A DNA stretch of 64,000 nucleotides, taken from NCBI GenBank assembly GCA_047602425.1, contig JASGHG010000001.1, positions 4,800,001 to 4,864,000 of the forward strand, given 5' to 3'. Positions within the stretch are counted from its first letter, which is position 1; every line of letters starts with the position of its first letter. Below the pieces are notes generated by a model. It was given only the letters and a program-made list of their open reading frames with translations. It did no database searches and was not told the origin of the DNA. Made by a program: the position numbers and the translations under genes. Source of the stretch: Nibricoccus sp. (GTDB taxonomy: Bacteria > Verrucomicrobiota > Verrucomicrobiia > Opitutales > Opitutaceae). Of this stretch, positions 45,766 to 63,006 are shown one piece after another.

Positions 45766-46140
45766 TTAACCGTGCTCAAAAACATTGTGCACAAGCGTTC
45801 GCGCATCATTCAGTAAATCGCCAATCTTTAATCGTTCGAAACACGACTCTTTGCCGCAGGCGATACACAACGCAATAAGATGCAGCATAGCTCCCTGGAG
45901 TAATACTTTCAGGGACTGGTTGTTAGATTCCGACCAAAAATTGAATGCTGCTACAGCAAATTTTTGTAACGGCTCAGGATCGATGGTTATCATATTTGAT
46001 GCCGATTCCTTCATCCCAGACATAAGCCCAGTCTCTTTCTCAAGAAGATGAACGTCTCCTAAGAAGGCCAAAGCCACAACGTTACTTGGCCACCAAATGG
46101 TGCGATCACTTTCTTTGATGTTTTCAAAAATGTAGCTCAT
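45766..46140 (-). CDS. Putative immunity protein of the RHS toxin
   Basis: Small AT-rich ORF; its ATG overlaps the toxin TAA (TAATG, 46142-46138); no signal peptide. Confidence 0.75.
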   Translation of the reverse strand: MSYIFENIKESDRTIWWPSNVVALAFLGDVHLLEKETGLMSGMKESASNMITIDPEPLQKFAVAAFNFWSESNNQSLKVLLQGAMLHLIALCIACGKESCFERLKIGDLLNDARTLVHNVFEHG

Positions 46141-49100
46141 TAATTTGTTCCCCAATCTAGACGGATATCAACGTTCGGATTCTTTGAACGCAAATCTTGA
46201 ACGGCTTTTTCGATTGCCTCTTTGAGAGCATTGTCAGCGGGTAAGCCATCAAATTTGAATCCAATCGGAGCATTTTCATAACCAGGCATAGCTGCCCTCG
46301 CTTCCATGTATTTATCGAATTTACCGTAGATATTCTTATCGACCCATTTAGAATTATCACCCGCCCAAGCGGCGGTCTTCTCCTCCCACAGTACGCCATC
46401 CTTTATTGAGTCTATATCGGTAATAGTTTGGCCATTTGGTCTATAAACGTTATAGCCAGTTTTACCTTCGAGACTACCTGTTGCTACAGGATTTACCTTG
46501 ATCGGTTTCGCATCAACAGCGGCTGTCGTAATTCGAGCGTCTGCTGTCGTCGTTCCAGTACCTTCAGCAATTTTGGCACCCCTTGTGGTGGTTAAAGCAG
46601 ATGCCTCCGCTCTCACCATGTTTGCTTCCAGCACCGGCGCAGTCGCTGCTTTGACGGTTATCGCCTCAATCAGTTCTGGAGCGCCAGAAGCCAACATCGG
46701 GATATTCAAAAGCCTTTCGCCATCTTGAAAAGTCTCGCTGCCAGGAATTACCTCGTTGCCAGGTTCGCCGCTATTATTGGCTCTATCAGCTGTGTCTCGA
46801 TCAACTTTATCGCAAACTAGTTTTTGCTCTTTGTCGAGGGCCTCGATGACCTTCATTTGCCCCTGATAAGCAGAGGGTGGCAACGGCCCCGGTCCCGTCA
46901 TTCCTACAGCACATTTGGCCATTCCATAGTACAGGTTAACAAACATTTTTTGAAACGCAGCCGCCATACCAGCCTGCCTACTTTTTGCATCTTCAGCATA
47001 ATACTCCCAACCGGTTGGATCGGTAAATTTCAACGGATTATTGAGAACATAGCTGTAACGATTATAGTCCTGAAGACTATTAGGGTTCTGTACGACTAGG
47101 TCCGCAGACAGCATGCGTCCCAGCAGCGGATCATAGATACGCCCGTTCATGTGAACGAAGTCGAGGTCGTCGAGCATTTCGTGGCCGGTGAAGCCGCGGG
47201 GGGTTACACTGTCGGCGCCGCCGTCGTCGGAGGCGTTGGGGCCGGTGCTGACAGGCACGCCTTCCCAGGTAAAGGGGTTGCGGCGTTGACCCCAGGCGTC
47301 TTCGCTGAACTTGCCGGGTTTGCCGCCTTTGTCGGTGGCGATGGCGCCCGTGCCGTGAAGTGTGGTGGCGGTGATGGAGCCAAGGTGGTCGTAATGGTAG
47401 ACGACGGCCTTCTCCTGCTGGCCGGTTCCGGCTCCGGGATTAAATTCTCTCGCTCCGATGATGCCGTCGGGGCCAGGCACGTAGATGCGCACGGTATCTA
47501 GCAACCAGTTTTGGGCGGAGCTATTGGTATCGGTATTCTGGTTCGCGTAGTTGAGTTCGAGAGTGGAGCCGAGGGCGTAGAGGCGCTTGCGGTTATAGTG
47601 CAATGGCGTCTGGTTGGGTGCGGCACCGGTCATGCTGTCGAACTCGCATTGGATGACGCGCGAGCGGTTGGCATTGTAGTGGAACTCGCTTCCGGCAGTG
47701 GTGGTGGCGGTGGTCTTGGCCATCCAACGGGGTTTGTCGAAGCCGGCCCATTTCATGGACCAGGTAGTGCCTCCGCCAATACGGGTGAGAAGATTGCCGT
47801 TAGCATCGTAGGTGATCGCCGTGGTCTGACTGTTGAAGGTATAGCTGGAGACAGCGTGCGGATGGGTCGAATCGTAGGCGTTGATGGTTACGTTTTGGCC
47901 ACCGACTTCGGTCTTGGAGGTGATGTTGCCGTTGGGTTGGTAGGCGGCGATAGTCGAGCCGTTGCGTTTCTCGAGGCGGTTGAGGTTATCGTAGCCGTAG
48001 TTTTCGCCCACGCCGGTGTCGGAGCGTGAAGTGAGGTTGCCCAAACCGTCATAACCAAAGCTCATGTTCTGCACCGAGGGCGTGGCGATGGCGGTGAGCA
48101 GGCCGTCTTCGGCGCGATAGGTGCGGGTTGTAACGTGGCTGGCGCCTTTACGGACGGAGATGATGCGGTCGAGGTAATCGTAGGCGGGCTGGTCCCACCA
48201 GGAGCGACCGAGGGAATCGGTCAGGCTGGTGAGGTAGCTCTTATTGTCGTAGCTATAGGTGTAGCCGTAGTCCTGCCAGACATAGGGCTGGGAATCAGGA
48301 TCTTCCGCGCCCGCTGGTTTCCAGAAATGGCGGACGCTGGCAGGGCGGCTGTAGGCGTCGTACTCGTGGGCGGTGTAGAACCATTTGCCATCGCTTTGGG
48401 CGAGCTCGAGCGAGGGGCGGCCCTTGGCGTCGTAGTAGTGGAGGTTAACTGCGGGAAAGGAGCCGATGGCGGTGCATTCCTCGCGCTGTGGGGCGCCGAT
48501 CCAGCCTTGGGAGTCTTTGGCGACGAGGTGCGGATAGAGGGCGACGTTGGCGGTGGTGTCGTAGTAAAAGAATCCGGCCGTTTCGGTAGATCCGTTGCCG
48601 GTCGTGGTACGTGTGAGCGGACGCCCAAGACGGTCGAAAGTGGAGGTGGTGACGTTATGCTTTGCATCTTCTTGGCGGACGACCTGGCCGACGGCATTAT
48701 TGAGGTAGGACCAAGGACCTTTGTCGGGGTCATTGAGCGTGAGCTGGCGACCAAGCGCGTCGTAGGTCGCGGTGATGGTTTGGGCCTGGTCCTTGAGCCT
48801 GGTTTCGCGCATGCGGCCGAAGCCATCGAGCCCGTAGGCGATCGAAGCGGTGGAGAGGTCGTCGACGTACCACGTGGTGTTACTCGTCGAGTCAGGGCTC
48901 GTGACGGCACTGACTGGGTTGTCAGCGTTCCAGACCGCGATGGTGCGTCCTTTAGCATCGACGTACGTGCTGTTGACCTGCGGATCGCGGTCGGGGGCGT
49001 CGACAGTGACTTGGGTGATGCGGCCGTGGTAGGCATTGGTGGTGACAGTGCCATTGGGTGCTGTGACGGTCTTAACACGGCCCATCGGATCGTAGGTAGT

Positions 49101-61960: not shown

Positions 61961-62013
61961 TTTATTAGCCACTGATTAACACTGATCTATAACAGGCAGG
62001 TATTTAAAAAAAC

Positions 62014-63006
62014 TTAGTTGGTTTGGGCTCTGAGTTTTGAGTTTTCGGCTTTGAGACTGGCAAGTTCGGCTGATTGCGCTTCAAGTTTGGCACGCTGGGC
62101 AATCTGTTCTTTCTCCTGCGCAATCACGTGCAACGTGAGCTCCTCGATCTTCGCCAAGAGAATCGCCTGCATGTTGCCAACGGAGACGCCTTTCTCGGCG
62201 ACTTCCTGCGCGGAAGGCACGCCGGGGAGGTGCTTCTCGGTTTTGATGTGCTGCTCCACTTCGGAGAGCGACTGCAACTTGTAACTATCGGCAAATACGT
62301 GGTCCGACCAGTTGGTCGTTTCGACGATCACTTCCTGCGCCCGAATCCTGCCCTTAACCGAGAGTTTTTCCGTCGGGCTCGTCGTGCCAATGCCAACATT
62401 GCCGGTAGGGTTAAGAATCATCCACGGATTGCTATAACTCGGTCCGATATATGTATAATTGAGATCGTCACCTGCACCTAAGGCCCCCCATACTACCTTG
62501 GTTTGGTTCTGGGAATTTACGATCCCGTAGCCACGAGCCCAGCCGCCTGGCGCGGTTATACGGATGGCTGCAGAAAGTTCGCCGTTGATGGCGAGGCTTG
62601 GGTGATTGTCTAGTAGCATTCCTCCTTGAGTAACGGTGAATCGTTCCGATGGGCTGGTCGTGCCAATGCCGACGTTACCGTTTTTAAGGACAGTCCAAGG
62701 AGTTGGGAAAGCTCCATTGTAACCCTCTAGGCTGAACATCGAATCTCGAGCGCTGAATTGCCATGCGGAGATGGCAGTATTATATATGCCACCACCTGTA
62801 ACCGCTCTATTGAAGCCGATTCCTGCTGTTTCGCCCGCGCGGATACTAATGGCATTCGTGTCGCCGTCAGAAATCACTAATTTATCTCCTGGATTTGTCG
62901 TTCCAATTCCCACATTTCCCGAGGAAGGAAATGTATTTTGGGCGTAGACTGCAGTTGTCATGACAAGGCTCAGGCAGATCAGGAGAGCGCAGAATTGTTT
63001 GTTCAT
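62014..63006 (-). CDS. Secreted tail-fibre-like paralogue A (first in transcription order)
   Basis: Signal peptide ending YA-Q, 3 GNVGIGT repeats, shared C-terminal domain. Confidence 0.85.
   Translation of the reverse strand: MNKQFCALLICLSLVMTTAVYAQNTFPSSGNVGIGTTNPGDKLVISDGDTNAISIRAGETAGIGFNRAVTGGGIYNTAISAWQFSARDSMFSLEGYNGAFPTPWTVLKNGNVGIGTTSPSERFTVTQGGMLLDNHPSLAINGELSAAIRITAPGGWARGYGIVNSQNQTKVVWGALGAGDDLNYTYIGPSYSNPWMILNPTGNVGIGTTSPTEKLSVKGRIRAQEVIVETTNWSDHVFADSYKLQSLSEVEQHIKTEKHLPGVPSAQEVAEKGVSVGNMQAILLAKIEELTLHVIAQEKEQIAQRAKLEAQSAELASLKAENSKLRAQTN

Follow-up and report, generated by a model that had tools for sequence, protein, structure and literature searches.

How does an RHS toxin that is exported by a signal peptide, and that has neither VgrG, PAAR nor TcA to rely on, find its target? 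The question is raised by a locus in a stretch of 64,000 nucleotides, hereafter the window, from a Nibricoccus sp. genome (Verrucomicrobiota, Opitutales; assembly GCA_047602425.1, contig JASGHG010000001.1, positions 4,800,001 to 4,864,000). Between positions 45766 and 63006 of the window, ten minus-strand genes follow one another in the order six fibre paralogues, adaptor, anchor, RHS toxin and DUF6086 immunity gene. The intergenic gaps are from -16 to 227 bp, which agrees with an earlier note on this DNA, made from the letters alone, that had described ten co-oriented and closely set genes. The homologues with a name and the close GTDB matches come from Opitutaceae, which points to a probable host in Verrucomicrobiota.

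The answer that we favour, on balance, is that the locus encodes a secreted antibacterial RHS toxin particle, which is aimed by a separate and interchangeable fibre through a docking pair. One half of the pair would be the constant C-terminal tail of the fibre and the other half a small domain, GCX, that is carried by the adaptor. That tail and GCX dock with each other is suggested by their gene order and fusions and seems to us probable; that the fibres also set the target range of the toxin has about an even chance of being right. The cluster is real and recurrent, and it looks like a variant of the known idea of polymorphic toxins aimed by adaptors, with what is seemingly an undescribed general docking pair.

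Toxin, fibres and adaptor

The RHS protein is built as the toxins of the TcdB/TcaC class. Behind its signal peptide (signal peptides were called by eye and hydropathy throughout, with no predictor used) comes a beta-rich region of about 230 residues, then SpvB, an FG-GAP propeller, TcdB_midN, and RHS repeats with a core that ends in DPTGW at residue 2344; after the DPxG motif the C-terminus is variable, and an immunity gene adjoins. By these sequence features the protein is a member of the class, and the exported TcB/TcC-like RHS toxin with immunity gene that the earlier note had proposed is borne out by SpvB, FG-GAP, TcdB_midN, the RHS core and DUF6086. No PAAR or VgrG domain was found on it by Pfam and NCBIfam scans. 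RHS shells cleave themselves at DPxG, whereby the C-terminal domain is set free. In the present case the tip is a predicted nuclease: among the named atlas clusters, those closest to it are of CDI EC869-like and Tox-REase nucleases, with scores of 0.89-0.92, and it carries an IxD..ExK pattern at residue 2543. In a metagenomic locus, L132, which has two fibres and the same adaptor, anchor and RHS, the orthologue is 82% identical to the window protein up to DPxGW and not at all beyond, where its tip is unrelated. The DUF6086 gene encodes, by its family and position, a probable immunity protein, and since it has no signal the target of the toxin would be in the bacterial cytoplasm.

Each of the six fibre paralogues has 3-4 GNVGIGT-type repeats, and all share a tail of about 120 residues, with 90-96% identity over 94 aa. 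The earlier note had reported these repeats, the shared C-terminal domain and unrelated middles. All of this holds within the window, where the middles are dissimilar to one another, but two of them are close to fibres of a second locus in the same genome (fibre 1 with 82% identity over 102 aa, fibre 5 with 81% over 263 aa). From this follows that modules move between arrays. The G+C content of the variable parts is mostly below that of the tails. The five intact fibres have signal-peptide-like N-termini; in fibre 4 an apparent frameshift in the signal-peptide region, either genuine or an assembly error, puts the start at 59575 out of frame, and the open reading frame (ORF) of this fibre has no signal. 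The statement that all genes except the last carry a signal peptide or an N-terminal anchor is therefore correct for most genes but not for fibre 4.

Of 5804 candidates, 4456 are related to the tail at E <= 1e-8. The monomer model of the tail (pLDDT 62.7) has a long C-terminal helix, and fold searches with this model returned generic helices only. The nearest named atlas cluster, Peptidase S74 with a score of 0.87, is a lead only; hhalign aligns the tail with S74 at a probability of 6%, and among the 25 Pfam families listed for 142 tails S74 does not occur. The SDxxxK self-cleavage motif is missing, as its serine is present in 46 of the 142 tails (proline in 51, alanine in 42) and the commonest residues at its +5 position are Glu, Ala, Asp and Ser. 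Cleavable S74 fibres were rejected on the missing catalytic motif. As a control, 25 true S74 loci gave no GCX or fibre-tail match within about 1.5 kb. A prophage tail cassette was also rejected, for the signal peptides are present and there are no phage genes among the scanned ORFs of the window.

The Ig-domain protein had been named as adaptor in the earlier note, and this role is made plausible by a domain that the note missed, GCX_COOH, and by fusions between GCX and RHS. The domain, of about 75 residues, clears the curated NCBIfam cut-off, and the TSP3-like repeats of the adaptor are weak and below theirs. The model of GCX is all beta (pLDDT 93.9), so that a short all-beta helix is predicted; right-handed beta-helices are matched weakly in fold searches, with a best Z of 4.5, and the sequence has no match in the PDB. 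The NCBIfam entry (NF045639) states no function, and the socket for the fibre tail that we propose here is an interpretation of our own. No paper using the term 'coathanger stack' was found in the mostly open literature that was searched. The anchor is conserved in L132 and in genome G087, and its motif occurs in three of 121 genomes of the order, two of which are without this fibre; in one instance (L258) it is fused to the start of an RHS gene. The anchor thus belongs with the RHS protein.

Table 1. Positions of the features in the window, and loci elsewhere in which GCX is found on non-RHS cargo.
Feature	Position	Strand	Description
Fibre 1	62014..63006	-	330 aa; signal peptide, GNVGIGT repeats, conserved tail 62014-62403
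Fibre 2	60875..61972	-	365 aa; tail 60875-61261
Fibre 3	59643..60848	-	401 aa; tail 59643-60011
Fibre 4	58333..59575	-	frameshifted; open ORF 58333-59406
Fibre 5	56866..58314	-	482 aa; tail 56866-57225
Fibre 6	55705..56859	-	384 aa; tail 55705-56064
Remnant of a seventh fibre's coiled-coil end	~55564..55650 (approximate limits)	-	before adaptor
Adaptor	54608..55477	-	289 aa; signal peptide, Ig/PKD-like domain, GCX domain, TSP3-like repeats, conserved C-terminal motif
GCX_COOH ('3-coathanger stack') domain	54893..55117	-	NF045639, 32 bits against a cut-off of 26
Membrane-anchored RHS partner	54071..54583	-	170 aa; N-terminal hydrophobic helix, Pro/Ala linker, conserved motif 54086-54253
RHS toxin	46140..54050	-	2636 aa; signal peptide, SpvB, FG-GAP, TcdB_midN, RHS repeats and core
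Polymorphic C-terminal region of RHS	46140..47009	-	289 aa; ends in predicted restriction-endonuclease-fold nuclease domain
Immunity protein (probable)	45766..46155	-	DUF6086, PF19564 E 1.5e-15; no signal; ORF overlaps RHS stop
Fibre-GCX peptidase or beta-lactamase-fold loci	L065, L074, L077, L081, L087, L088, L098, L103, L113, L124

Second locus, natural swaps and neighbourhoods

A second locus of the genome (G000:C1:1985000-2004700, at about 1.99-2.00 Mb; L001, L002) repeats the layout of the window locus. It has nine fibres, two of them apparently frameshifted, a GCX adaptor, a signal-peptide RHS protein that belongs to a different class (transglutaminase, DUF6531), a small membrane immunity-like ORF and two further GCX genes, of which one is a truncated duplicate. 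All 15 fibre tails, all four GCX domains and all 39 GNVGIGT-type motifs of the 5.16 Mb genome are confined to the two loci, as are two of its three RHS cores. Because all motifs fall in two similarly built loci, the fibre cluster is not due to chance.

The strongest sign of docking, an indirect one that is read from gene content, is that two mutually exclusive tail/adaptor pairs seem to serve one and the same architecture. To exemplify, consider genome G087, where the same slot is held by a different fibre and by an adaptor with three xGQLK repeats. Of the 121 genomes of the order, 21 have the GQLK domain. In 20 loci, taken from 38 matches, a second tail motif ends a gene at most 500 bp upstream of the GQLK adaptor in 16 cases, and the same motif ends one of 2260 ORFs in loci of the first type; the motif is short and was tuned after inspection of these tails, an earlier two-sequence profile having matched only its source genome. 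The 20 GQLK loci contain neither GCX nor a first-type tail, and the first-type loci are in turn free of the GQLK domain. The second fibre type (L260, L261, L267-L286) has a C-terminal PQG[DG]IxMG-like tail, unrelated to that of the first type, and YadA-head repeats in the two that were scanned. Its xGQLK genes often occur before or within RHS-like genes, and the gene downstream of GQLK was matched to RHS by BLAST in only five of the 20 loci, which were short stretches. In genome G072, finally, the C-terminal motif of the adaptor and the anchor are kept, with no GCX and no fibre of this type in the genome.

The GCX domain is itself found on varied cargo. Among 33 of 37 listed GCX proteins that were scanned, 16 have the tail of the type IX secretion system (T9SS), 10 are peptidases and a beta-lactamase fold is seen in one; the set also includes several small adaptors that carry TSP3-like repeats. 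In Bacteroidota, fibre genes are followed by GCX-bearing S8, C10, M23 and M43 peptidases or by a beta-lactamase-fold protein, many of them T9SS-tailed (Table 1). In seven loci (L038, L058, L148, L152, L172, L262 and L264) GCX is part of the RHS polypeptide, and a single Arcticibacter contig (G124:C16; L057, L262) has 22 fibre tails together with GCX-tipped RHS genes. From the varied cargo and the RHS fusions follows that the constant pairing is that of the tail with GCX, with RHS as one cargo.

These relations were also counted. The sample was 76 GTDB loci, from the best 80 of at least 139 confirmed, and 79 metagenomic loci, with 155 distinct fibre clusters; the local profiles gave no match on reversed decoys, and clusters with too little flank were dropped (3 kb was needed for the GCX count and 6 kb for the RHS count). 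Downstream of the fibre cluster, the start of a GCX gene falls within 1.6 kb in 43 of 100 cases, against 2 of 96 with such a gene upstream. For RHS the distance allowed was 5 kb, and a gene starts downstream in 17 of 76 cases and lies upstream in 2 of 84, so that the neighbourhood enrichment which the earlier note had set as its test is borne out. In the same 76 clusters GCX is downstream in 28, and both GCX and RHS in 7. The link between fibre and RHS that the note proposed is therefore enriched as expected, but the link between fibre and GCX is tighter and extends to non-toxin cargo.

Among 121 genomes of the order, fibre tails occur in 8 and RHS in 61. GCX occurs in 6 of the 121, all of them among the 8 with fibres and none among the 113 others, as counted with a profile partly built from these loci; the curated NCBIfam model finds it in 3 genomes, all fibre-bearing. 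Thirteen fibre loci of the order, other than those of the present genome, consist of six with fibre, GCX and RHS, one with fibre, GCX and a contig end, two at contig edges and four with neither GCX nor RHS. In a Bacteroidota sample of 81 genomes, 11 have tails and 8 have GCX by the curated model, with 7 in common, one of these being the genome chosen as centre; the curated GCX is thus present in 7 of 11 fibre-bearing genomes and in 1 of 70 others, and of its 10 matches 7 are found no more than about 7 kb downstream of a tail. No P-value is given, because related genomes are not independent. Because phylogeny confounds it, a mirror-tree correlation over 62 fibre/GCX pairs (r 0.43) was not relied upon.

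Since RHS is so much more widespread in the order than the fibre, the fibres must be accessory. A role as a substitute for TcA is not upheld, and an obligatory delivery device is rejected, as most RHS-bearing genomes of the order are without this fibre. The same disparity weighs against the aimed particle itself, and so do several other observations. No adjoining GCX gene was detected at 57 of 100 fibre clusters, 59 of 76 have no RHS neighbour, and the four loci of the order with neither belong here as well. The GCX profile was iterated on the tested loci themselves, the genomes are related, as said, and the T9SS cargo and peptidases that make up so many of the GCX proteins are not RHS toxins. 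In a Spirosoma genome (G123; L099) 49 scattered tails stand beside 2 GCX domains and 3 RHS cores, and another partner may exist for these fibres. In the Nibricoccus genome, 3 of the 15 fibre genes look broken, and the third RHS protein has neither fibres nor GCX; this protein (G000:C1:333400-341997; 2256 aa, signal peptide) is encoded after a gene for 369 aa.

Proposed mechanism and alternatives

From the anatomy, the gene order, the co-occurrences, the fusions and the swaps that are observed at these loci we infer how the particle could work, with every physical contact, the targeting and the killing taken as conditional. Fibres, adaptor and RHS protein would be exported by Sec, the anchor would be held by its membrane helix, and the immunity protein would have no signal to follow them. 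Each fibre may trimerise, with variable adhesive segments along its length, as suggested by the repeat that it has in common with solved MAT fibres, and its tail, uncleaved as the S74 motif is missing, would remain attached as an invariant plug. That the plug binds the GCX domain is suggested by the order of the genes, by co-occurrence and by fusions, and the C-terminal part of the adaptor, or the motif of the anchor, may bind the RHS shell. Since there is one GCX domain per adaptor, each adaptor would take one fibre trimer, so that one cell would produce a mixture of particles that reach different receptors, with heterotrimers perhaps among the fibres. The RHS shell would then cleave itself at DPxG, and the predicted nuclease, against which DUF6086 would protect the producer, would enter the bacterial cytoplasm.

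Of the other explanations, the one that survives best, although we consider it unlikely, is that the docked complex is kept on the producer surface by the membrane anchor, so that the fibres catch neighbours and the RHS protein acts on contact, with no selection of targets. This would account for the membrane-helix anchor between adaptor and RHS and for its conservation in L132 and G087, and it would agree with the MAT fibres, which are displayed on the surface according to the accessible text of PMC10769870. Locus 2 and most of the fibre-GCX-RHS loci, however, show no such anchor, its motif is as rare as stated above, and six to nine diverse middles suggest several specificities.

It is less likely again that fibres and GCX are a separate adhesin module, with RHS as a mere neighbour in an island of secreted and horizontally moved genes. 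Fibre-GCX pairs often occur without RHS, many fibres occur alone, and a REP-type transposase adjoins the locus. Against such a separation, the RHS polypeptide itself contains GCX at no fewer than seven loci, the downstream order is strict, two RHS classes in one genome have a common layout, and a second fibre/adaptor pair occupies the same slot.

That GCX is a folding or export helper of the fibres, in place of a dead S74 chaperone, or that the fibres are released decoys, in neither case with any aiming of toxins, we find improbable. The missing catalytic motif of the tail, the predicted small beta-helix of GCX and the position of its gene after the fibre gene would all suit a helper, but a helper has no need for fusion to proteases, to a beta-lactamase-fold protein or to RHS toxins, and many fibres have no GCX nearby. 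Delivery of RHS by the genome's type VI secretion system (T6SS) or by a TcA-like injector, with irrelevant fibres, is very improbable, for in spite of a full VgrG elsewhere in the genome and of the SpvB/TcdB_midN architecture the RHS protein has a signal-peptide-like N-terminus and neither a PAAR nor a VgrG domain, and no TcA family match lies near the locus (33 window ORFs).

If the aimed particle is accepted, there would be a concrete answer to how signal-peptide RHS toxins without VgrG, PAAR and TcA find their targets, and both the unannotated tail family and GCX would have a function. The bet-hedging logic of umbrella toxins would then reach Gram-negative bacteria with unrelated parts, and separate fibres would suggest themselves as the aiming device of many T9SS proteases in Bacteroidota. 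A wider and only tentative proposal is that of a general Gram-negative plug and socket, where tail/GCX, and likewise the second, unrelated tail with triple GQLK, would allow trimeric adhesin fibres to be exchanged on whatever cargo the cell secretes: RHS toxins in both Verrucomicrobiota and Bacteroidota and, in the latter, T9SS proteases. The RHS toxin armed with fibres would then be a free-standing class, aimed without T6SS, contact-dependent inhibition (CDI) or TcA.

Known systems and surroundings of the locus

The umbrella toxins UmbA/UmbB/UmbC of Streptomyces, as described in the accessible parts of PMC11062931 and PMC13274773, are like the present system in that a polymorphic toxin is combined with a small adaptor and diversified receptor-binding subunits. 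In the accessible text of PMC11062931 these subunits are encoded separately, with a signal peptide and a common docking domain, and the inactive trypsin fold of UmbA corresponds to the non-catalytic tail here. The parts differ: in place of an ALF ring and stalk, a lectin and UmbB, there are an RHS shell, a putatively trimeric fibre and GCX; several spokes are replaced by one GCX per adaptor; the hosts are Gram-negative; and the dock is found also on non-toxin cargo. No domain common to the two systems was found, and Pfam and NCBIfam scans of the locus gave no match to ALF, trypsin or lectin families. The docking of diversified subunits by an adaptor is, in the present case, suggested by genomic context.

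The fibres themselves resemble the MAT fibres of Bdellovibrio (PMC10769870; PDB 8OND, 8OL4, 8OML, 8ON4), trimeric adhesins with signal peptides that, in the accessible text, have the same GNVGIG capping-loop repeat and form a mosaic family of paralogues. The fibre repeat profile matches 8OND (E 3e-4) and 8OL4 (E 7e-3) in the repeat region only, and both the capping-loop repeat V-G-G/N-x-x-x-P-x-x-x-L and the signal peptide are found in the window fibres. Sec signals, which phage fibres do not normally carry according to the earlier note, are thus already known on fibres with this very repeat. The polarity, however, is reversed: MAT fibres are described as about 1000 aa long, with a conserved N-terminal domain of about 130 aa and with variable or S74-cleaved C-terminal tips, whereas the window fibres, of 330-480 aa, have a variable front and a constant C-terminal tail. 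The words 'Rhs' and 'toxin' are absent from the main text of that paper.

For the toxin, the accessible text of Zhang et al. 2012 (PMC3482391) describes toxins of the TcdB/TcaC class that agree with this one in having a signal peptide, SpvB, an integrin-like propeller and RHS repeats, a variable tip and a downstream immunity gene, and its table lists 'tail-fiber' among the repeats of the toxins themselves. Separate fibre arrays, GCX and an adaptor, as in the window locus, do not appear in that description. The RHS protein of locus 2 belongs to the inactive-transglutaminase class of the same paper, and it has the same type of fibre. No account of fibre arrays that dock to RHS through GCX was found in the mostly open literature searched; the supplements of the MAT paper and of the 2012 paper may list these families. 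Further off than the umbrella toxins are two other likenesses, both taken from the accessible text of their sources. In extracellular contractile injection systems (PMC12923769) diverse tail fibres aim a toxin device, but a contractile tail and baseplate-anchor domains are needed, none of which is seen at the window locus. Bacterial teneurin-like proteins (PMC13018210) have signal-peptide RHS/YD shells, variable adhesion domains and immunity genes, with the adhesion domains in the same chain and not, as here, on separate fibres.

In the surroundings of the locus, the absence of phage, VgrG/PAAR, TpsB and TcA genes from the window had been pointed out in the earlier note. None of them is matched among the 33 scanned ORFs of window positions 1-43.6 kb, with the ORFs partly covered, but the genome has a full VgrG elsewhere, at G000:C1:939058-940614. 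It also encodes three secretins. The TcA families PF03538 and PF18276 gave no match in the genome, and neither did T9SS tails; both searches are weak, as control genomes were likewise silent. Promoter and terminator scans of the locus were at chance level (16 against 13.9 and 24 against 21.7).

The immunity gene is adjoined by a REP-associated tyrosine transposase-like gene at window 44422-45378, and a similar gene follows the fibres in L034. In L037:805-3709, downstream of the main RHS gene, there are two additional fibre ORFs and an orphaned piece of an RHS core, in the manner of spare cassettes. About 6 kb from the locus lies ffh (window 38568-39911), and the RHS pieces, the GCX-less adaptor and the anchor of G072 (L259) are also found beside ffh, so that the ffh neighbourhood is a possible insertion hot spot. 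Between ffh and the locus are an ORF for a secreted BNR-repeat protein of 852 aa (window 40081-42639), whose poly-serine linker is long and whose C-terminus is hydrophobic and rich in glycine, and a membrane-anchored ORF of 208 aa (window 43669-44295), with YD-like segments at its end and no firm family assigned. A corrinoid cluster (URO-D-like, B12-binding, RACo activator, DUF1638 and AraC regulator) occupies window 5414-10617.

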